From IMG/VR virus record IMGVR_UViG_3300027627_000015, positions 1 to 34,489 of that record: a stretch of 34,489 nt of DNA, one strand, 5' to 3'. The notes under the pieces are model-generated. The model searched no databases and was not told the origin of the DNA. It saw only the letters and a list, made by a program, of their open reading frames with translations. Below are positions 4,529 through 26,695 of the stretch, one piece after another. The DNA comes from a virus (Duplodnaviria > Caudoviricetes). Position numbers and translations under genes: made by a program. The number at the start of each line of letters is the position of its first letter. Position 1 is the stretch's first letter.

Positions 4529-7500
4529 ATGGATAAGACGCTGCTCCCTAACCCGGTTATCACTGCGTGGGCAAAGGAACGGGACGAGCTGGACGCCAGC
4601 TCGCCCAAGGGAAGTCATTGGAACGACTTCACGCCCGACATCCAGAACTCGGTGCTGACCCAGTTTGCGCAGAAGTGGCGCGACTCGAATCCGAAGAACT
4701 TGCAAGTGGATGGCTGGGCGTCTGACTTCTTCAACCGTGCCCAGCGCAAAGCCACGGAGGCGACTCCGGTGGAGGCAGCGCCAGTGCCGCAACCGAACAA
4801 CGCCACATTCGCGGGAGCCTTTCCGCCCAACCAGAACGGCCTCTCCCCGCGTCGCGCTCCGGTGACGTTCGCGCCGCGCAACTATGTCCCGCCTGACTCA
4901 GATATGCCGACGCAGTTCGGCACTCACATGGGTGGGCAATATCTCCAGTCCATCGCTGAGAAGAACGACCGCATCGCGATGTCGGCGGGTTTGGTGACGG
5001 GTCAGCTTACAGGCGAAGACCTTCAGCGCACCCTTAATGACGAGTTTGAGAACCGGAAGCTCCACCCTGAGCGGTTCCAAGAGCAGCCGGGCATCCTCCC
5101 ACGCATCGCGGGCGAGCTGTCCTACACGATTCCGGCGATGGTCGGCATGACAGTGGCCGGTGGCGGCCCTGCGGGGTTGCTCACGGCAGGTGCCCTCGAG
5201 TCCATGAGCAGCAAATTGCTCAGTCTCAAAGACAACTACTACGCGCTCCTCGACAAAGGGCTGGACCCAGCCGAAGCGTGGCAGAAGGCTGGGACTATCA
5301 GCAACATCTCCGCCGCCATCATGGGTGTGGCGTCCGCTGTTCCCATCGGCCAGACGGTGATGGCCGTCGGCGGCGGTCAAGCGACCAAAGAGACTTTGAA
5401 AATCGCGCTGGGCCAGCAACTCGGCACCAAGGCTGCGGAGAAGGTGGCCGGGTTGGCAGTAGCGAAGGGCTTCGACAATGCGGGCGCTACTGTGCTCGGT
5501 GGCGCTGCGAAAGCCCTCGGCGGGCTGTCACAGACAGGTGTGGCGAAGGTCGGCATCCTCGCGAGCATCCAAGGGGCGGAGAACCTCCTAGCCGAAGGTG
5601 CGGACATCAGCCAAGAGCGCACCCAAGGTAGTGACACCAGCGCCTATCGCGGCACGGCGGGCGAGCGATTACTTTTCGCCGGTGCAACTGGCGTCGGTAT
5701 CGGTTTTGCCCACGCGGGAGGTGCCCGCATCCTCGACCTCCGCTCCGGCAAAGTGGCCGGTGAAGAGACGGCGGCCCGCATCAACGGCGTCTTCCAGATG
5801 CTTGATGCCAACCTGCGCGGCGGTAGCGCAGCCGTGGAACAACTGGCGAAGATTAACTACGGCGACGGCCCGGGTGGCAACGCGGCCAAGTTGACCACAC
5901 AAGCCGTGTGGGACGCGGCAACCTTGGGGCAGAGCGGCTTGAAGATGACGGTCGAACCCGGCGCGCATCCCACGCAACCCGGCGCGCTCGCACAGGCGAC
6001 CCGTGACACAGTTAACTTCTACGGTAGGCTCGTCCAAGCGGATGACACCGCTAAGGTGGCGACTGTCACGCACGAAGCGGCGCACCCTTACTTTGACCAG
6101 CTTCACCCTGACGTGCAGCGGGCGGCGTTCCAGCGGTTCCAGCGTGAGCTGGGGTCAGGAGAGAGCGCCTTGTTTACCCGAGTGGAAGAGGACGGCAAGG
6201 TGCGCCTGACCACCCGTGAAGGCGTGGACCCGCAAATACTCGAGTCGTGGCAGAAAGCACTCCGCGCCACTGACCCCGAGGAGAAGGCCAAGCACACCAA
6301 CACCGCATTCCGTGAATGGTTCGCGGAGCATCTGACGTTGTCCCAGCTCGACTTTGTCTCCGGCCGAGTGAGGGCGGCGCAGGACACCTCGTTCTTCGGG
6401 TCGCTGACACGGGACATCCGCACCCGCAGCGAGTTGGTGGGCCGTGCGTTGGGCGTGCAGAACGCGCTCCTCGCTGGGTACCGCAACGTGCTGGACGCGC
6501 CGCTGCGCACCGACTACAACCCCTCTCTCACCATCGTCCGCGAAGCGATGGGCTTGAAAGAGGCTCCGGCTCCGAAAGACGCGGCTGCGGCTCCCGCTCC
6601 GACCCCCAAGGTTGCTGACCCGGCCCCAGAATCCATTGTCGGCACGGCTCCGAAAGACGCGACACCGGCCGAGCAGGCAATCTTCCTTTCCCCAGAAGCC
6701 CTCGTTGAACGTGCGAAGGGGATGTCCGTGTTTTTCAAGCCCCCTGAGTCGGCGGTTGTCGCACCCGAGTCGAAGCCGGTGGTAACGCCCGAACCCGTGT
6801 CAGTGACAGAGCCGCCTGCGGCAAAGCCAACGGCTGCTCCCGCACCGAAGCCTGAGCCGACCTTGGAAGCCACGGTTGCTAAGAAAGTGTTGAAAGCCAA
6901 GCTCAAGGCACTGGCCCCCGAGCTTCCGCCGGTCGAAATTAAGCCGGAAATTAAACAAATTGAGGCGGAACCGTCGATTGCGACCAAAGAACCTGTGGCC
7001 CAAGATGACATCGCTTCGCCGATGCCGGACGCGAAGTTCGCACCGAAGCCTGAGCCGATGTCCGGCGAGAAGTTCAAGTCCTCCCCCGAAGACCTTGGCT
7101 ACAACTACGGAGGGAAAGCCGACGCCCCGATTACCCGTGTCGGCGACCGTGTGTCATTCATACGGACGGAGACAGTGCTCAAAGACGGCAAGACCATCCA
7201 ATCCCCCCGTGGCCGTGTGGGCGGCGAGGTGGTGGGGTTCAGCCGGAACGGGCGAGTCATCGTCCAGATGCGGCAAGCGGGTACGGCGACGACGACGCAG
7301 CAACATTTCTCGGGCGCATCAAAGTTGCGGCTGGAAGCGGCTTTGCCGACGGCCGTCCCGACGGCAGCGCCGAAGAGCAAGGCCACCCGTGTCGCCGAGA
7401 CGCTGCTGGAGCGGGGCGAGGCCATCACCAACACCGAGCTGTGGCGGCTGCGCGATGCGATTGACGCTGAAATCGCTCCCCAGCGCGAGGCGAGGCGCAA

Positions 7501-10500
7501 GCTCATCGAATTTGAAGAAGGCGACCTGTCCAAACGTGGCGATGACCCGCTCGCGCCCAACCGCAGCCTGTGGCTGGCCCCCGATGGTGGCACCTATGAC
7601 GCGGAGTTCCACGGCGCGACCCCGGATGGTTCGAGTTACAGCCACGGGTTGTTCATCAAGCAGTGGGTGCGGGACCGACTTAGCCCTCGCCGTGCGGGCA
7701 AGTTCCCCGAGGCCGAAGTGGACAGTGCGCGGCGGATGAAGGCGCGGGTGGACGAGATGTTGGCGGCGGACCCGGCGCTGCGCGGTGACGCGGATGAGGA
7801 CGGCCAGTACAGCATCTTCTCCGCCGACCAAACGTGGAACCAAGCCGCGCAAGAGCGTGGCTGGGTGCGCATCAAACCGATGCCGGTCCCGACCAACCGT
7901 GCGACCATCTTCGCCGAGAGTGCTGGCGATATGTCCGCCGCGCAACGGGCCGCGCTACAACTGGCCACCGACAAGGGGATGGAGGTGCGGTACATCCGTG
8001 GCGGTGCGTTGGCCAATCGTGCGGCGTTCTCGGAGTACCGGGCGTTCGTAGACAGGGTCGGGCAGGAGGAAGGGTATCTGACGCGCCGTGGCGACCTCGT
8101 GGATGAGACGACCGTTGGGCCGAGAGGCGCGCTCTTCGTGTCGCCGAACATCCGAGAGGGCTTAAATTTCAACGACGCCGTGACCGCGCTACGCGGTGAG
8201 CGACACGCTCAAGTGCGGGCCTTCGCCGAGAAAGTGGATAAGTGGTTGCCACCCTCCGAACGCCACGATGCCATCGGCGACTGGAAGGACGGGGCGGAGA
8301 ACTCAACCGTGACCATGTACGGCCCGGATGTCCCGTACAAAGATGTGCGAGTGGCGGGAGCTTTGCTCGGCGACCACGCGCGCCAAAAGTCCGTGCTGAC
8401 GTTTCGTTCCGACCCGTTCCGAGCCAACTCGGCCCTTTACGACTTCATCCTGCCCGGCACGTTTGAAGACGCGCGGGTCATCCTGACGAGACACGGCTTT
8501 GAGCATCGAACGCTGGTTGACCACAAAGACGGTGTGCGCGTAATGTTGTTCGACAACGAGGCATCATTGGTGGATAACGTCCGAAACCTTTCTTATGAAA
8601 ATGACATCAAAATCACAAGGGTCCGTGGGTACGGCGAGTTCTTCGGAAGCAAAATCGACTCCCGCGAAGACGCCGCGAAAGTTTTCCGAGATGTCGCCGG
8701 AAGAGCAGGAGGCGGTGTTCAGCGACCCTTGCTTCGTGGACGGGACGGCCAAGGGGATGCAGTATATTTTGCCCAGCTCCGGGCAGAAGCCGAGCGCGGA
8801 GCCGTAGCCGACCTTTCCACGCGCGGCTCGCGGCGGTTCCCCGAGCGCGCCGCCGAGGGCGACCCAGACTTGAAGGACATCCGAGACAATCGTCCTGACA
8901 TAGCGGGGTACGAGACGCAGGTCATCGCCACCGGTAAGGCGGAGGCGAACATGAAGACGGACGCCGAGTTGGTCACGTCGGCCGACCGCCTCACGGACAT
9001 GGTGCAGACCGACACCGCGAAGAACTTCCTCGTATTAGACGGGTTGGAGCTGATGCAGCGAGCCTTAGCCAAAGGCGACCGCATCACCGCTGAAGGTGCG
9101 TTCGACACGATTTCAAAGGCGGGCACGACCTTCGGTCAGTTGCTTCGTCAATTCGCTGAGTTGAAAGCGACCCCCGCCCACGTCGCCGCTGTGGTGGAGA
9201 TTGGCCTCGGCAAGAAGGGGTTGATGTTGCAGCCGCACCAGAAAGCGGACCTCAAAGCCAAGCTCGACGCAGCAGACACCGCAACTGCGGCGCACTCCGC
9301 TGCGGTTGATGCCGCCTTGCTGAACCCGTCCGACGCCACATACAAGGTGGCTGAAGCGGCAGAGTCTGTCGCCCGCCGTGCCAAGCTCAATTGGGTCAGG
9401 GACTTAGAAGTGCTGCTGCCGCGCGAGAGCCTGTCGCAAGACTTCTTGTCGGTAATTCAAGGCAACTTGCTCACGCCGAAGTCGGAGCTGCGAAACTTCC
9501 TGAGCAATTACTCACGCGGAGTCATTGACCTCCCCGCGCGGACCGTCGGTGCTATGGGAGACGCTGTCTGGTCGGCCATCACCGGCACCCCTCGGACGGT
9601 GAAGATGCCGACGTTGACCGAAGGACAGTGGGTCGCTGCTGCCTCGATGCGCGCTGTCCCCGACGCGGTAGACACGCTGCTGCGTGGCCCCGGCGGCTCG
9701 GACATTCTCGGGGAGCGCATACGTGGGTTCCACCCTGTGGGTGCTTTAATCAAAGCGTTAAACGGCGACCTGCCAGTGGACATGGGCACTGGCCGTGTCC
9801 CACTGAAGCTTCGCACCGCGAAACTGGCCGAGGCGTTCTTCGGCGCGACCCCTGAGCCGATGCTCCGTGGTCTTGCGGCGTTCGACAACATCGCCAAAGC
9901 CGGTCTGCGCGCCTCCCGGATGGCGCAAGAGGTTGACCTCCGTAGCGCGGCCGAAGGCACGCGGGAATACGCGGAAGCGAAATTGATGGCGACCCGTCAA
10001 CTGAGGGCGACCGCCGAAGAGGCAGCCTTGGAAGGTACGTTCCAAAACGCCAGTGCCCCTGCGATGGCGGCCTCGGCCGTCGAAGGTATCATCCGCCGAA
10101 CCGCAGGAGAACCGGGCGTCACCGCGTTCCGCCTAATGACGAGTGTGTATCAGCGCACGCCGCTCAACGTCTTGGCGACCACGCTACCTTACCTCGTCCC
10201 ACCACTGGCGGGTGCCCAGATGGTGTACCACGCTCGGACCGGCAACCGGCGAGAAGCGGGCATTGACTTCGGTAAGTTCTGGGTCGGCACGACCATCGCC
10301 GCCATCTCTGACCTACTCCTCCGGGACGACCTCATCTCCGGTGGACCTGAGTCCGAGGAGAACCTACGCCGTCTCCGAAGCTCGGAAGACATGGGTTACT
10401 ACCGGGTCAATCTCACGGGCTTGCAGCGCAAGCTCGACGGTGGCGACGGCAAGTACCAGACTGGCGACACCTCGGTGCGCTTGGACCTCCTCGGTGTCCC

Positions 10501-11341
10501 CGGTGTCCTCCTCGGTGTCCGCGCTGACATGGCTCGCATCGATGGCAAGTCCTCGAAAAACCGGGTGGAGGGCGAACCGACTTTCAACCTCGACGTGTTC
10601 GGAGAGGTGTTGGGGATGTCACGGTTCATGGTCGAGACGACTATGTTTCAGAACGTAGGCAAAGGACTCAGAGCTGTCGCCAACGGTGAGTTCGCGGCGT
10701 ACCTCCAAAACCTGTTCCAGCAAGTTTCCGTCGTCCGTCCCGACTTCGCAAACACGGTGACGGCCATCCGCCACGCGGACCAGCCGTACCGTGTGGACCT
10801 TGCCGACCGAGGGAATGGCAAGAACGTGGTCGAGCAAGTTTGGGAAAATGTAATCAAGCACAAGAAGGGTGAGTGGGACGACTTGCCGAGGAAGCTGAAC
10901 CTGTGGGGCCAGCCGATTCCCAACGTCCCCGCTGGACGGAACCCCTACGTATACAACCTCGTCGATGTCCTGATGCCCGCGAACCAGCAGGACGCGGCGG
11001 TGACGGTCATTCGCGACGCATTCACCGCGACTGGCGACAAGGGGGTCATCCCCGGCTGGCCGAACCGCGTGCTCTCTTACAAAGACTTGCCGCAGGGAAT
11101 GTATCTCTCCGGAAAGATGTACGAGTCTTACGTCACGGCCGTGCAGGGAGCGAAGCTCGACGGGCTGAAGATGCTGATGGCGGACAAAGATTTTCAGAAG
11201 GCCGACGGCGATGCTCAGGCGAAGGCAATGCAGCGGATTTACGACCGCACCGGCGGGAAGGCCGAGCTGCGATGGCGCTACGAGCACCGCGACGAGTTGG
11301 AGGTGGAGCGCACGAAGCTCAAGGCGTTTCTAAATCGTTAG
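4529..11341 (+). CDS. Giant polyvalent DNA-ejection protein (2270 aa): zincin HExxH domain, Pro/Ala linker, KOW/SH3-like segment, WxxPDG..H..GWVR domain, SAM-lyase-like domain, helical C-terminal region
   Basis: Single long ORF ending the virion operon (T7 gp16 / P22 gp16 position). THEAAH at aa ~515-519 with EWFAE at ~596; C-terminal FQN, QRTPLNV, NLWGQPI and VIPGWP motifs resemble large polyvalent ejection proteins. Confidence 0.8.
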   Translation: MDKTLLPNPVITAWAKERDELDASSPKGSHWNDFTPDIQNSVLTQFAQKWRDSNPKNLQVDGWASDFFNRAQRKATEATPVEAAPVPQPNNATFAGAFPPNQNGLSPRRAPVTFAPRNYVPPDSDMPTQFGTHMGGQYLQSIAEKNDRIAMSAGLVTGQLTGEDLQRTLNDEFENRKLHPERFQEQPGILPRIAGELSYTIPAMVGMTVAGGGPAGLLTAGALESMSSKLLSLKDNYYALLDKGLDPAEAWQKAGTISNISAAIMGVASAVPIGQTVMAVGGGQATKETLKIALGQQLGTKAAEKVAGLAVAKGFDNAGATVLGGAAKALGGLSQTGVAKVGILASIQGAENLLAEGADISQERTQGSDTSAYRGTAGERLLFAGATGVGIGFAHAGGARILDLRSGKVAGEETAARINGVFQMLDANLRGGSAAVEQLAKINYGDGPGGNAAKLTTQAVWDAATLGQSGLKMTVEPGAHPTQPGALAQATRDTVNFYGRLVQADDTAKVATVTHEAAHPYFDQLHPDVQRAAFQRFQRELGSGESALFTRVEEDGKVRLTTREGVDPQILESWQKALRATDPEEKAKHTNTAFREWFAEHLTLSQLDFVSGRVRAAQDTSFFGSLTRDIRTRSELVGRALGVQNALLAGYRNVLDAPLRTDYNPSLTIVREAMGLKEAPAPKDAAAAPAPTPKVADPAPESIVGTAPKDATPAEQAIFLSPEALVERAKGMSVFFKPPESAVVAPESKPVVTPEPVSVTEPPAAKPTAAPAPKPEPTLEATVAKKVLKAKLKALAPELPPVEIKPEIKQIEAEPSIATKEPVAQDDIASPMPDAKFAPKPEPMSGEKFKSSPEDLGYNYGGKADAPITRVGDRVSFIRTETVLKDGKTIQSPRGRVGGEVVGFSRNGRVIVQMRQAGTATTTQQHFSGASKLRLEAALPTAVPTAAPKSKATRVAETLLERGEAITNTELWRLRDAIDAEIAPQREARRKLIEFEEGDLSKRGDDPLAPNRSLWLAPDGGTYDAEFHGATPDGSSYSHGLFIKQWVRDRLSPRRAGKFPEAEVDSARRMKARVDEMLAADPALRGDADEDGQYSIFSADQTWNQAAQERGWVRIKPMPVPTNRATIFAESAGDMSAAQRAALQLATDKGMEVRYIRGGALANRAAFSEYRAFVDRVGQEEGYLTRRGDLVDETTVGPRGALFVSPNIREGLNFNDAVTALRGERHAQVRAFAEKVDKWLPPSERHDAIGDWKDGAENSTVTMYGPDVPYKDVRVAGALLGDHARQKSVLTFRSDPFRANSALYDFILPGTFEDARVILTRHGFEHRTLVDHKDGVRVMLFDNEASLVDNVRNLSYENDIKITRVRGYGEFFGSKIDSREDAAKVFRDVAGRAGGGVQRPLLRGRDGQGDAVYFAQLRAEAERGAVADLSTRGSRRFPERAAEGDPDLKDIRDNRPDIAGYETQVIATGKAEANMKTDAELVTSADRLTDMVQTDTAKNFLVLDGLELMQRALAKGDRITAEGAFDTISKAGTTFGQLLRQFAELKATPAHVAAVVEIGLGKKGLMLQPHQKADLKAKLDAADTATAAHSAAVDAALLNPSDATYKVAEAAESVARRAKLNWVRDLEVLLPRESLSQDFLSVIQGNLLTPKSELRNFLSNYSRGVIDLPARTVGAMGDAVWSAITGTPRTVKMPTLTEGQWVAAASMRAVPDAVDTLLRGPGGSDILGERIRGFHPVGALIKALNGDLPVDMGTGRVPLKLRTAKLAEAFFGATPEPMLRGLAAFDNIAKAGLRASRMAQEVDLRSAAEGTREYAEAKLMATRQLRATAEEAALEGTFQNASAPAMAASAVEGIIRRTAGEPGVTAFRLMTSVYQRTPLNVLATTLPYLVPPLAGAQMVYHARTGNRREAGIDFGKFWVGTTIAAISDLLLRDDLISGGPESEENLRRLRSSEDMGYYRVNLTGLQRKLDGGDGKYQTGDTSVRLDLLGVPGVLLGVRADMARIDGKSSKNRVEGEPTFNLDVFGEVLGMSRFMVETTMFQNVGKGLRAVANGEFAAYLQNLFQQVSVVRPDFANTVTAIRHADQPYRVDLADRGNGKNVVEQVWENVIKHKKGEWDDLPRKLNLWGQPIPNVPAGRNPYVYNLVDVLMPANQQDAAVTVIRDAFTATGDKGVIPGWPNRVLSYKDLPQGMYLSGKMYESYVTAVQGAKLDGLKMLMADKDFQKADGDAQAKAMQRIYDRTGGKAELRWRYEHRDELEVERTKLKAFLNR
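8595..8807 (+). CDS. Putative 70-aa protein nested in the +1 frame of the giant ejection gene
   Basis: ATG in a locally AT-rich context; protein-like core KFSEMSPEEQEAVFSDPCFVDGTAKGMQYI, while the main frame turns Arg/Gly-rich over the same bases. Confidence 0.4.
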   Translation: MKMTSKSQGSVGTASSSEAKSTPAKTPRKFSEMSPEEQEAVFSDPCFVDGTAKGMQYILPSSGQKPSAEP

Positions 11342-21908: not shown

Positions 21909-22350
21909 GTGGCACCCTGTAGTGGCACCATATTTGGGGAGGACAACTGTGTGTCAAACAGGATTCGATTCCCTTCACCCGCTCCACTTAACCCCTTCAT
22001 AAACAGTGGTTTACGCGAATTACAAAACCGTGTGACCAGTTGTTTCCACTTTCAAAACAGGGTGTTTTAGCAAAGGTTGGTGGCACCATCGGGGGCCATG
22101 CTTTTCGGTATGGTGCCACACGATTGCGACCAATAGCCATGCGGGTGCGGTGAGGGTCGAGGGGGATTTGGTGGCACCATGCTGGCCAAGTTGCCACGGC
22201 GGCCGCCAGCGGCGGTGGCCCCATGTATCATACATATTCACATATACATAATAGGGGGGGGTATGGTGCCACCAAGGTACCATTGGCCTATGGCTATTGG
22301 TCGGGATTGGTGGCACCATACCCCGTTTATGGTGCCACTTGGTGGTACCA
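21909..22350. repeat. Cluster of (TG)GTGGCACCA iteron-like repeats in both orientations around an AT-rich core (candidate ori)
   Basis: Copies at 21909, 21922, 22078, 22111(inv), 22169, 22214(degenerate), 22264(inv), 22308, 22330(inv) and 22340(variant); AT-rich 22224-22253 followed by G8. Confidence 0.8.
21964..21986 (+). other. attP core matching the 3' end of tRNA-Gly(CCC-type)
   Basis: TTCGATTCCCTTCACCCGCTCCA = T-loop, 3' T-stem, acceptor strand and CCA of tRNA-Gly; no 5' half of the tRNA upstream; 160 bp from the int start. Confidence 0.85.
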
Positions 22351-22476
22351 CCCCCTGCTTTCGGGCATGGCTTCCGGCGAGCGCCATACGCGAGCCGCGC
22401 CGCGCTGGACCGCTGTCCTATCGCGCCAACGATGGCGCGTAAATCTATCCTTATTAAAATGACAAATTTTTGGCAC

Positions 22477-22513
22477 AAAAAAACCCCCGCACAGGCGTGA
22501 ACCTGTACGGGGG
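22477..22513 (-). terminator. Intrinsic terminator of the AAA+/vWA operon
   Basis: Minus strand CCCCCGTACAGGT-TCAC-GCCTGTGCGGGGG followed by T7. Confidence 0.85.
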
Positions 22514-22621
22514 CGTCGAAACACCACGGCCACCGTGGAGCTGCGGCTTGGGCACCACACCCGAGTTCGCGCTGTCAACGTAGCGTTGACGGGTGGCGGG
22601 GGCAAGCCGATTAGTGTGGAC

Positions 22622-23101: not shown

Positions 23102-24793
23102 TCAGCGGGTGCTTCGTGTGATGTACTCGCACAGTGCGCCAGCAAGCTGTGCGCCTGATTCGCGGGTTACGTGGCGGCCGAAGTGCCACTGTAGCGCGTC
23201 GGGGATTTGGCTCGTCGAGGAGCACGTCGCCGCGCCGATGAGGTTGACGCCTCTGCCTCGGTACGAACCAGCGTCCACGAGGCCATCCGAGATGTTTCCG
23301 TCTGTGTAGCAGACGACTGCGCTGGCGTCCCGCAGCGTTTGGAGCGGGATGGCCGCGAGTGTGGCGGCGTACGACTCGCAACCATGCGCTGGTGCGATGG
23401 CTGCTAGCTCGGCGTCCGGCTGGCGTAAGTCCACCTTGTGGTGATAGCCGTCGCCCGTCAGGTAAACGTCAACGTGCAGCGTGCCGGAGCGATGCAGTGC
23501 GGCGAGGGACAACAAAAACGGACGGCCGTGAGTGTTGTGCCGTCCGGCCATTGACCCCGAGCCATCGAACACCACTACGATTTTCCGCTTCCCCTTGGTG
23601 ACGCCGCGTTGGACGAACGCATTCGCCTGTCCCGATACCGCATTCTGCGGGTGAATGCGCGGCCCGTCACATCCAGTGCGGATGGGAGCCGTGTCAGCGC
23701 GCCGCACTAGCCCTGTGAGCGTTGCGACTTGCTGTGCAACGAGCGGCCGCAGTCCATTCACTAGGTCTTGACCGCGAGTGGTCCCGTTGTGCTTGTGCGT
23801 CAGCCCCTTGTCTTGGAAGAACTCGATACCGCGATGGTGCCGATGGACTGGAGCACTTGTCGGACCGCCGTAGGCATTCGTGTCCGCTCGCGTTTGCGCT
23901 GGTGCCGCACCGTCATACAACCCGCCGTTGGTCACGCTGCCGTTGCCGCCGCTTGCGCCGCCCGAGTTTTTGACCGGAGCCACTTCGGGACCGACGGGAG
24001 TGCCGCCGCTGGACCCGTCATTCTGCGCACCAATGCTGTCAGTGACACGAGGTTGTGGCGGCGTTGTTCCGCCGAATATGGCGACCCACCGGACGCACAC
24101 GTCCACGATTTCCTCGGTGCTCACTGCGGCGATGGCCTGTGCGAAGAAGTCTCGGATGGTGCGACCGACCGCACCAGCGCCGATGGTCGGCCCGAGGTTC
24201 GCGGGCTTCCAATCGCCGCCAGTCCAGCGCGGCGCTCGGACCGTGAGCGATGAGTACGAGGACGACTCTCCGTTTATTAGCGCCCAAAAGTACTCGGTCG
24301 GGCGCTTCGTTTCCTCGGGTTGAGCGTAGTAGTTCACCCAGCCAAACCGCTGCCCTCGTGTGGACGGATGCAGCCTCGCGGCGTGTTCGATTCGTGCGTC
24401 CTCGAACAGGTTGAGCAAGGCGAACGGGACGCCCTTTGTCCGGCATTGCGCCGCGATGCTATCCAATGACGGCTGCGTTCTGTGCCCGTGCCAGCATTCA
24501 TGCAGCAGCAGCGATTGCAACGCGCTGTACGATTTGCTGTCACTGACAGCGGCCGCTGGCAACAGTCCGGCACGCCATTGCGCGCCAAGTTCGATGCGGT
24601 GCCCACCAGTGTCGAACCGCCAACTTGCTGTTTGCGATGGCGTGCCGAGTTTTACGCTCACGGTCCAACGTGTAGCGGTGCCGAGTGTGCGGACGCAGCC
24701 TTCGTGCTGCTTGGCCGTCTTGCGACGCGTCCCCCATGAGCGGACGTTTGCGAGTAGTTTTTGGTCAATACCGTGAGCGATGGACGTGTTCAT
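23102..24793 (-). CDS. vWA-domain protein with N-terminal HExxH metallopeptidase-like domain (CobT/DUF2201-like)
   Basis: LLLHECWHGH plus NLFEDARIE; Gly/Ser linker; MIDAS VVVFDGSGSM and CYTDG. Start taken as ATG at 24793. Confidence 0.85.
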   Translation of the reverse strand: MNTSIAHGIDQKLLANVRSWGTRRKTAKQHEGCVRTLGTATRWTVSVKLGTPSQTASWRFDTGGHRIELGAQWRAGLLPAAAVSDSKSYSALQSLLLHECWHGHRTQPSLDSIAAQCRTKGVPFALLNLFEDARIEHAARLHPSTRGQRFGWVNYYAQPEETKRPTEYFWALINGESSSYSSLTVRAPRWTGGDWKPANLGPTIGAGAVGRTIRDFFAQAIAAVSTEEIVDVCVRWVAIFGGTTPPQPRVTDSIGAQNDGSSGGTPVGPEVAPVKNSGGASGGNGSVTNGGLYDGAAPAQTRADTNAYGGPTSAPVHRHHRGIEFFQDKGLTHKHNGTTRGQDLVNGLRPLVAQQVATLTGLVRRADTAPIRTGCDGPRIHPQNAVSGQANAFVQRGVTKGKRKIVVVFDGSGSMAGRHNTHGRPFLLSLAALHRSGTLHVDVYLTGDGYHHKVDLRQPDAELAAIAPAHGCESYAATLAAIPLQTLRDASAVVCYTDGNISDGLVDAGSYRGRGVNLIGAATCSSTSQIPDALQWHFGRHVTRESGAQLAGALCEYITRSTR

Positions 24794-24828: not shown

Positions 24829-26169
24829 TTAGACAACCTTGAGTACTTGCGTGATGGTTTCGCGGGCCTTGGCGTCTGTGTCGCCGAGGTCCAAATCCCA
24901 ATTTGCGGAATGTGCCACGGCCAGCTCCTTGATGAGCGCCGTAACGCCCGCCTCATCCTGCGTGGCGCAGTGGGCAGCGGCACACTCGAGCAAGCGGAAA
25001 TCCACAGGATAGGCACAGCTTCCCGACTTGGTTGTGATTCGAGTAGCTCCAATCAGTTGTGCGAACTTTTCTGGCAAGCCGTTCGAGGGGATGCCGTACT
25101 TGTCTAGAATGGACTTTGCGATTGCGGTGCAATCCGAAAGGGACCAGTCCAAGCGGAGCTTTGCGTTTAGGCGGGACCAGAGCGCCTCGAATGGCTTGAC
25201 GTACCCGAGGTTGGATGCCGCGACGAGGTGCAAATTCGCAGCAGGGCATTCGATGACCTCGAGTATGTTGCCGTCGGGCTTCCGAGTCCTGAGCCTGTAG
25301 GTGGGCACGCCCTTCACGTCCACAGTCGTGAGAAACAGGAGCAACCATTGCTGTGCCGATTCGTTGAGGCGAAACGTCTCGTCCAAAAACAGCAGCACAG
25401 ACTTGCCCGAGGACGCTGCACGCACCGCTTGGGTGATGACGCCATCGACGATGCTAAAGCCGCCCTTGCCGTCTGGAACGAACGAACCCAGCAACGTGCT
25501 CACTTCATCCGCTTCCGGCGAGCAACCGTGCTCCAAGAACACGTCATAGCCCTTGCCGAAGATTCGGACGCCGTAGGACTTGCCGTAGGACGGCGGTGAC
25601 AGTAGCAAAACATGAGAGTTGTGGGTCGGCTGTCCCGCCTTGTAAAAACGGGACAACCAATCGACGACCTTGTTCCCGCTCACGGCAGCGGCGAGGATGG
25701 GCAAGCGTCTCGCTGTCACGGCGTCCGTTGCGGCCCGTGCCGCCAGCGCCGCCAGCGGTCGGAGCGTTTCCAGCTCTTCCTCGAGGTCGGCGATGCGAGA
25801 ATTTATCGGCGACGTTTCGCCATCGACAATGGTCCGCACTTCTTCCGCTCCAAGTCCGCCTTTGGTGCCGCCGAATATCGACGCGATTTGTTCGAGGACA
25901 AGGCGAGGGTCAGGTGAGGCCGGAGCGTGGGTGGGCGCTGGTGCCGGAGCCGCAAGTGCGTTGCGGGCAATGACAGCGCTCAAGGTGGCGTCGGTTGTGT
26001 CGTTGTAAGCCGCTCGAATCTCGGCTTGCGACAGGATGGCGACGACTGCACGGGACACGCCGCGCGCTTGCAACCATTGACGAGCGACTTCCCGTAAGGG
26101 GCCGCCTACGATGGCTGCTGTGCCGCGAGCGCCGAGTAGCGGTTCGCATTCTTGGATGGTCTTTTTCAT
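24829..26169 (-). CDS. MoxR/CobS-like AAA+ ATPase
   Basis: HVLLLSPPSYGKS Walker A variant, LFLDE Walker B, VAASN sensor 1, ALWSR Arg finger; N-terminal coiled coil. Confidence 0.87.
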   Translation of the reverse strand: MKKTIQECEPLLGARGTAAIVGGPLREVARQWLQARGVSRAVVAILSQAEIRAAYNDTTDATLSAVIARNALAAPAPAPTHAPASPDPRLVLEQIASIFGGTKGGLGAEEVRTIVDGETSPINSRIADLEEELETLRPLAALAARAATDAVTARRLPILAAAVSGNKVVDWLSRFYKAGQPTHNSHVLLLSPPSYGKSYGVRIFGKGYDVFLEHGCSPEADEVSTLLGSFVPDGKGGFSIVDGVITQAVRAASSGKSVLLFLDETFRLNESAQQWLLLFLTTVDVKGVPTYRLRTRKPDGNILEVIECPAANLHLVAASNLGYVKPFEALWSRLNAKLRLDWSLSDCTAIAKSILDKYGIPSNGLPEKFAQLIGATRITTKSGSCAYPVDFRLLECAAAHCATQDEAGVTALIKELAVAHSANWDLDLGDTDAKARETITQVLKVV

Positions 26170-26194
26170 GGTGTTTTTGGTCCGTTTTTGTGGT

Positions 26195-26248
26195 GGGGTT
26201 TCGACTAAGCCGTCTCATCAGGCACAGTTGGCTACGCTGTGCGACCCC
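26195..26248 (-). ncRNA. Type III hammerhead ribozyme
   Basis: Minus strand GGGGUC/GCACAG-CGUAGCCAA-CUGUGC-CUGAUGA-GAC-GGCUUA-GUC-GAAA-CCCC: complete catalytic core, three perfect stems, GUC cleavage triplet, and complementary loops (AGCC/GGCU). Confidence 0.93.
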
Positions 26249-26585
26249 GACTCACGAGTGATATGGGCCTACCGCAGGGGCAGGAAGCTCGTGAGCTGTC
26301 AGTGACACGCCGTGAGTCATGCTTTGAACCTCGATTGCTCAAGGGTGCGTCTTCACTCGTGTGACTCCCGCTTGGCCGATTGAATGGTTATGCGGGGATG
26401 GTCGGGCAATGGACTTGCGGGTCCACTGCTGCCGTTAAGCTGTCCTGTGACGGGGACTCCCTCGTCGGTTCCAGCGTGTCTTTCCGCTCGTGGTGCGGTC
26501 ATGTTCGATGCCGCTCGGCGTGCCCTTTTCCGTCCGGCAAGGACGTGGCGCTTTGGATTCGGTGCGGCAAAACCGATGAACAACG
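26249..26585 (-). ncRNA. Candidate structured leader RNA upstream of the hammerhead
   Basis: No convincing ORF; serial stems such as CGUCC/GGACG, GUCC/GGAC, GCAGUGGAC/GUCCAUUGC, CCCGC/GCGGG, GAGUCA/UGACUC and CUCACGAG/CUCGUGAG. Confidence 0.5.
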
Positions 26586-26590
26586 ACAAC

Positions 26591-26619
26591 ATTGAACTGC
26601 ATTCGAGTCTATTTGTCAA
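26591..26619 (-). promoter_or_regulatory. Sigma70-like promoter for the leader-ribozyme-AAA+/vWA operon
   Basis: TTGACA (26614-26619) - 17 nt - TTCAAT (26591-26596). Confidence 0.65.
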
Positions 26620-26695
26620 CATTTAAGCGCTGTTACCCTTGTATTCATTGGGGATTTCGATTGTCGGCCTCACGTGATGCGGACACAGTGCTCGA

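Follow-up and report, generated by a model that had tools for sequence, protein, structure and literature searches.

A type III hammerhead motif ahead of an AAA+ ATPase gene in an uncultured freshwater phage

The minus strand of a phage genome recovered from metagenomes holds a complete type III hammerhead motif at positions 26248–26195, directly ahead of a gene for an AAA+ ATPase. The predicted ribozyme is very probably active, and it is best explained as a portable element found at gene boundaries in phage early regions, and not as a dedicated regulator of this ATPase. The window that we analysed is a whole virus record (34,489 bases, 82% complete) whose genes include terminase, major head protein, PolA, helicase and integrase; near-identical DNA is present in freshwater and lake metagenomes.

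Results

A complete type III hammerhead with a single predicted cut site

The element (26195–26248, minus strand; coordinates below run 5′ to 3′ on that strand) was read from the sequence and recovered by a descriptor. It opens with the 5′ strand of stem III (26248–26244), which pairs with 26199–26195, followed by C17 at 26243. Stem I joins 26242–26237 to 26227–26222 around loop I (26236–26228), the core CUGAUGA lies at 26221–26215, stem II joins 26214–26212 to 26205–26203 around loop II (26211–26206), and GAAA occupies 26202–26199. Stems I, II and III thus comprise six, three and five pairs. The consensus core (CUGANGA ... GAAA ... NUH, with A15.1–U16.1) is present with zero deviations; stem III is open and loops close stems I and II, as in the type III permutation. 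Searching both strands of the window with descriptors for types I, II and III returned this one site and no second hammerhead. None of 400 dinucleotide shuffles held a site with at least six, three and five pairs in the respective stems (33 held a loose match), and the core pattern, matched once in the window, was matched in none of 100 shuffles. The initial annotation had proposed a complete type III hammerhead here, and every part it named is where it was placed; the descriptor also sets the cut after 26243, in agreement with the predicted cleavage between 26243 and 26242. Cleavage after GUC is described as leaving a 2′,3′-cyclic phosphate and a 5′-OH (PMC6765202), and 14 of 18 consensus hammerheads are reported to have cleaved in vitro (PMC3088659).

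The element is intergenic, on the sense strand and shortly before a start codon: 25 nt separate 26195 from the ATG at 26169, the spacing first annotated, and the N-termini of four homologues of the ATPase (P0004–P0007) align to this Met. The intervening linker (26170–26194, minus strand) is A/C-rich, unstructured and without a Shine–Dalgarno motif. Across 20 start codons checked in this phage, most have A/C-rich leaders that likewise have no such motif, a possible clue to the host.

Folding predictions were consistent with a ribozyme that competes with another structure of equal stability. The free-energy minimum differs from the hammerhead fold (z −1.37); constraining the hammerhead in its context gave −48.7 kcal/mol against a minimum of −48.8 kcal/mol, within 0.1, with the pseudoknot excluded from the energy. 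Pair probabilities were 0.83–0.99 for stem III, 0.54–0.57 for stem I and a weak 0.30–0.32 for stem II, and remained steady over six context lengths from the bare 54 nt to 490 nt.

The initial annotation had also suggested a search with the Rfam hammerhead models, which turned out negative: no model of clan CL00010 matched the window at E ≤ 5, or a 301-nt segment at E ≤ 10. A scan of 17 homologous ATPase loci at the Rfam gathering score gave two type II hammerheads, one tRNA and no other ribozyme class, with no sign of twister or pistol ribozymes in the hammerhead slot. Because the models also missed most of the type II sites that we found in these 17 loci by descriptor or by eye, we attribute the silence of Rfam on the window element to model coverage.

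Predicted loop–loop pairing and kinship with type II hammerheads

Loop I contains AGCC (26233–26230), predicted to pair with GGCU (26211–26208) in loop II. The four possible Watson–Crick pairs would place the element in the pseudoknot class (at least four pairs); since such a match arises by chance alone in 6–11% of comparable loops, it is weak in isolation, and we rely instead on relatives. The loop I motif is also found in a family of type II hammerheads, whose 3′ tail is the GGCU of loop II, and the A at 26206 corresponds to a conserved A that precedes stem II in 39 of 46 type II elements. In three type II elements (L002, L003 and L009), stems I, II and III are letter-identical to those of the window element or nearly so. 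Around a match to the search pattern, L006 and L010 have a shape like a type II hammerhead with the core altered after CUGA, immediately ahead of a start codon. The initially proposed loop I–loop II contact is thus strengthened, as a prediction, by the same motifs in the type II family and by a swapped pairing in other type III elements. The U at 26234 is a candidate partner for the last A of loop II (26206); a U–A reverse Hoogsteen contact is described for hammerheads (PMC2632901).

Pseudoknotted type III hammerheads were rare in our searches. A search with the pseudoknot motif (121 of ~550 loci, 107 unique) yielded 45 type II elements, one type III, one doubtful type I and 60 non-ribozymes. 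The closed-loop form, sought in a complete scan of IMG/VR (116 loci, 95 unique), gave two type III elements, that of the window phage and a second (L472/L585), which follows a 148-aa ORF and precedes an ATG by 12 nt. With the motif swapped between loops (121 of ~170 loci, 100 unique), 11 type III elements were recovered; five carry the matching swapped bases in loop I, and at least four Watson–Crick pairs are possible in two of these five. Among type III elements chosen regardless of their loops, 1 of 55 had at least four Watson–Crick loop–loop pairs, and none of the eight matches to the pseudoknotted type III pattern in prokaryote genomes was a hammerhead. The window element lies outside RF02276, in which stem II is open: its loop II is closed, so that the family motifs appear in another permutation.

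Taken together, these comparisons identify the window element as a rearranged member, in type III order, of a widespread family of type II pseudoknotted hammerheads. Its loop II would be accounted for if two tandem type II copies had fused, combining the tail of one copy with the lead-in of another; no leftover halves flank the window element, and the record with the second type III example (G001) holds just one match of the family pattern. A pseudoknotted type III subfamily may already figure in Dataset S1 or Fig. S4 of PMC3088659. Finding the motifs of a type II pseudoknot family arranged as a type III element is of modest value: it may be useful for better search models, and as a candidate compact insulator.

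Three metagenome runs hold a related phage, with 140–142 differing letters over ~1,995. Within the ribozyme, where the comparison covers indels, the only one is an extra base in run X12, which reads as a U between A9 and G10.1 and also occurs in the second type III element and in 7 of 45 members of the type II family. A viroid hammerhead tolerates additional bases at this position. Deletions of 2 + 2 nt affect the linker (26170–26194) in all three runs, and the leader upstream of the ribozyme has no indels in any of them.

Phage hammerheads commonly sit shortly before start codons

The core pattern occurs in an estimated 6,600 or so IMG/VR stretches, extrapolated from 2 of 64 parts, from which 126 loci were fetched. 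The resulting sample comprised 131 unique matches, of which 67 were type I, 18 were type III and 46 fitted neither type; a narrower pattern (126 of ~560 loci) gave 120 unique matches (85 type I, 30 type III, 5 neither). An ORF starting with ATG began within 40 nt downstream in 71 of 83 type I and 24 of 27 type III elements of the narrower sample and in 42 of 64 and 14 of 17, respectively, of the core-pattern sample; for random places, the count was 239 of 1,620. The median distance from hammerhead to ATG was 20–24 nt in the two samples. A spacing of about 20–25 nt is therefore the normal phage arrangement, and the position of the window hammerhead is ordinary for phages.

Its upstream setting is not the commonest for type III: 32 of 53 type III elements follow an ORF of at least 40 aa within 45 nt, whereas the window element is preceded by a 22-codon ORF only. 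A helix of at least five pairs ending within 3 nt of the ribozyme, which the window element has, was present in 35 of 57 type III elements versus 80 of 570 shuffles, and in 12 of 159 type I and 6 of 46 type II elements.

An apparent early transcription unit

On the minus strand, a promoter candidate, a leader of ~340 nt, the hammerhead, the ATPase gene, a vWA-type gene, two small ORFs and a terminator-like hairpin form an apparent transcription unit. The candidate promoter (26591–26619; perfect −35 box, 17 nt, four-of-six −10 box) was picked by eye and not called by a consensus scan. The likely end of the unit is a hairpin resembling an intrinsic terminator, with a U tract, at 22476–22514. Between promoter and ribozyme, the apparent leader (26249–26590), the piece that cutting would release, has local hairpins and no convincing gene. 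Its overall folding z-score is −1.09; one 80-nt segment reaches −2.77, and 9 of 10 segments are weaker than −1.5. A search of 50,697 phage records and of the loci that we fetched revealed no homologue of the leader. A helix within 26249–26318, formed by 26256–26249 with 26318–26311 or by 26258–26250 with 26296–26288, ends 0–1 nt before stem III. No RNA runs holding the phage were found among the sequencing runs listed.

The 22-codon ORF (26320–26252, minus strand) has GAGG 8 nt ahead of its ATG, and its stop codon falls inside the helix that abuts the ribozyme. An 89-aa ORF at 26622–26353 was treated as spurious: it runs across the −35 box of the promoter candidate and matches no family. Just past the stop codon of the vWA-type gene, a 10-pair hairpin with a GNRA loop (23093–23070, minus strand) is followed by an A/C-rich linker and an ATG; a type II hammerhead occupies the matching slot in one ATPase homologue locus (L013).

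Elsewhere in the record, 26 bases at 21961–21986 (plus strand), adjoining the integrase gene, resemble a tRNA, presumably Gly-like, over its T-loop and acceptor end, and are a candidate attP; ARAGORN found no full tRNA there. An 8-base motif that occurs eight times, in both orientations, at 21909–22338 may represent integrase arm sites or origin repeats, and a good sigma-70-like promoter (21869–21841, minus strand) lies ahead of the integrase and replication genes. Among the virion genes, a 2,270-aa ORF (4529–11341, plus strand) has no Pfam or PHROG match.

Hammerheads do not follow the ATPase/vWA module

The gene after the hammerhead (24829–26169, minus strand) encodes a 446-aa AAA+ ATPase that is AAA_5/MoxR-like by its homologues: 8 of 16 match PF07728, the window's own protein has no match, and the ATPase profile found no solved structure. 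Next on the same strand, a 563-aa protein (23102–24793) has an HExxH motif at residue 98 and vWA-type DxSxS/TDG motifs at 410 and 497, with no Pfam or NCBIfam match. The original description of the pair as AAA+ and vWA genes therefore stands, through homologues for the one and motifs for the other. Homologous ATPase loci were grouped into 46 clusters at 95% identity; a gene with HExxH and DxSxS follows the ATPase in 28 of the 29 clusters with enough DNA, the other 17 being too short. The nearest homologues (P0004–P0006, ~50% identity) are proteins without flanking DNA, and no relatives of the ATPase were found in prokaryote genomes or in 50,697 phage records.

Hammerheads at these loci were called with a 12-pair cut-off in a script, to which sites seen by eye were added. 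Within 400 nt upstream of the ATPase, 10 of 46 clusters have one, namely the type III element of the window and nine type II elements (eight by script, L016 by eye). Four clusters carry a hammerhead between the ATPase and vWA genes (three by script, L067 by eye), and in three it lies elsewhere on the same strand (just past the vWA gene in L013; also L041 and L054). The remaining 29 clusters showed none, 4 of them with less than 400 nt of upstream and 5 with less than 100 nt of downstream DNA. In L083, an antisense type I candidate was too weak to reach the 12-pair cut-off and was dropped. In all, type II hammerheads sit beside the ATPase gene in 13 clusters, belonging to two clades other than that of the window. 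In a quick tree, from which L082 and L083 were left out as short and to which six proteins without DNA were added, the nine upstream clusters form one clade and the four between-gene clusters another, both with support of 100 and both apart from the window. Hammerheads were therefore placed beside this ATPase at least three separate times, yet most lineages have none.

These counts do not support a special tie between the ribozyme and the ATPase/vWA operon. The comparison of homologous AAA+/vWA operons that the initial annotation had put forward shows that the ribozyme is mostly not kept, and no cluster but the window's own has this type III form. With a hammerhead upstream in 10 of 46 clusters and none seen in 29, the element is not a conserved cis-regulator of these operons; the window supplies a further, independent example of a phage AAA+/vWA module bordered by a hammerhead. 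A search of the literature available without subscription turned up nothing relevant that links ribozymes to MoxR or vWA genes.

The leaders of the homologous loci showed other features. A motif conserved upstream of the type II hammerhead in seven loci (L016, L022, L024, L062, L064, L068 and L071), and found also in the ATPase leader of L045, resembles the boxA of rRNA antitermination. Two loci (L030 and L061) share a conserved, long, hairpin-rich non-coding leader that follows a promoter-like site ~300 nt before the ATPase start; that of L030 has no Rfam match. Long stop-anchored hairpins with similar closing helices lie between the upstream stop and the ATPase start in L014 and L017/L053, in the slot occupied elsewhere by the hammerhead.

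Discussion

We consider it likely that the ribozyme cuts the early transcript constitutively after 26243, removing the leader and leaving the ATPase/vWA message with a hairpin-capped 5′-OH end. Transcription would start near 26619, and the predicted pairing of loops I and II would make the ribozyme fast at low Mg2+, with constitutive self-cleavage after the GUC that ends at 26243. Only the five pairs of stem III would then hold the leader, so we infer that it is released; the helix abutting stem III may cap and protect its new 3′ end. Given the type III strand order, the whole ribozyme body would stay on the downstream message. The predicted 3′ product begins with the 6-pair stem I hairpin, a 5′-OH and no free 5′ bases, in keeping with the hairpin-capped start proposed in the initial annotation, and the message may be steadier or better translated, as with the insulator RiboJ.

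Cutting might instead be gated, either by alternative pairing of the leader or by a ribosome that completes the 22-codon ORF only three bases ahead of stem III, and ATPase/vWA output would then depend on conditions. The GAGG before that ORF and its stop codon within the abutting helix fit such a switch, as do the three possible partners of the 3′ arm at 26260–26249 and the equally stable competing fold of the ribozyme. We nevertheless regard it as unlikely: the near-constant stem probabilities from 54 to 490 nt indicate that no upstream partner invades the ribozyme, an abutting helix is standard in type III elements, most start codons checked in this phage do without a Shine–Dalgarno motif, and the leader has no homologue in the loci or phage records searched. 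Alternatively, the cut could serve mainly to mature the leader into a small RNA of its own, protected at its 3′ end, any effect on the ATPase message being secondary. The absence of a convincing gene over its ~340 nt, the terminal helix that ends at the cut, one well-folded 80-nt segment and the lack of indels in the related phage agree with this; its unexceptional folding as a whole, the lack of an Rfam match and the many homologues in which, judged by eye, the ATPase starts without a leader, immediately downstream of a promoter-like site, make it quite unlikely.

Two further readings deny the message any benefit. Cleavage could lower expression, with the 5′-OH product degraded to damp or time the early genes, as when the ribozyme cut in glmS leads to decay (PMC6765202); the outcome would hang on the nucleases of the host. 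We judge this very unlikely, as there is no evident ligand pocket, the product would open with a 6-pair hairpin and no free 5′ bases, and the same layout precedes many unrelated genes. Least probable, in our view, is an inactive or neutral leftover of recombination between hammerhead-flanked gene cassettes. That would accord with the 29 homologue clusters without a hammerhead and with a loop II that looks as if the lead-in of one type II copy had been attached to the tail of a different one, but the core is perfect, the sole indel seen in a relative produces a form common in the family, and remnants of the exchange are missing both beside the window element and in the record of the second type III example.

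Constitutive cutting at a gene boundary is thus the reading that we favour. A bolder one is improbable: AAA+/HExxH-vWA early modules would have repeatedly and independently recruited hammerheads of various permutations at their borders (ahead of the ATPase, between the two genes and past the vWA gene) to set message stability or stoichiometry, the window copy being a permutation by fusion of two type II copies with cutting gated by a ribosome on the 22-codon ORF. If true, it would provide a regulated phage hammerhead and a handle on what bacterial hammerheads do.

Known hammerheads offer several points of comparison. Hammerheads are reported to flank phage genes, with pseudoknots in all three types and in ~40% of representatives (PMC3088659), and two reviews treat what phage hammerheads do as an open question (PMC6155905, PMC6765202). 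The window element is a clean example missed by Rfam; as one of thousands similarly placed, in an uncultured phage, it does not make that question easier to test. The type II hammerheads with a pseudoknot between loop I and the 3′ tail (RF02276; PMC3088659) resemble it in the loop I motif, the 3-pair stem II, the pseudoknot partner and the conserved A; they differ in strand order, the window element being type III with loop II closed and stem III open, and the RF02276 model does not detect it. With type III hammerheads (RF00008), both those of the sTRSV and viroid type and the pseudoknotted bacterial ones (PMC3088659), it shares topology, core, GUC cut site, the U in loop I and the 3′ A in loop II. 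Its four Watson–Crick loop–loop pairs are uncommon among phage type III elements, and no Rfam model scores it.

The closest parallel in setting is HHphage of haloviruses HF1 and HF2, reported to lie 13 nt before the first ORF, a helicase, of an early transcript; the mapped 5′ end of that transcript is no more than 3 nt from the cut (Perreault et al. 2011, PMC3088659). In both cases, a hammerhead sits a few bases before the first ORF, encoding an ATP-using protein, of an early polycistronic phage transcript, and cleavage would determine where the message begins. HHphage differs in its core insertion, its shorter spacing and its haloarchaeal hosts, as against the consensus core, 25 nt and freshwater source of the window element, and in its mapped transcript end. 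RiboJ, measured in E. coli, raised protein 2–10-fold and mRNA ~2-fold (Clifton et al., 10.1101/317875); it too is a ribozyme placed between a promoter and a gene, where its self-cleavage strips off the leader and leaves the message with a hairpin at its 5′ end, although as an engineered element it provides a functional analogy only. Set against these systems, the window element, probably active, appears to add to the known class of phage hammerheads with a minor structural twist.
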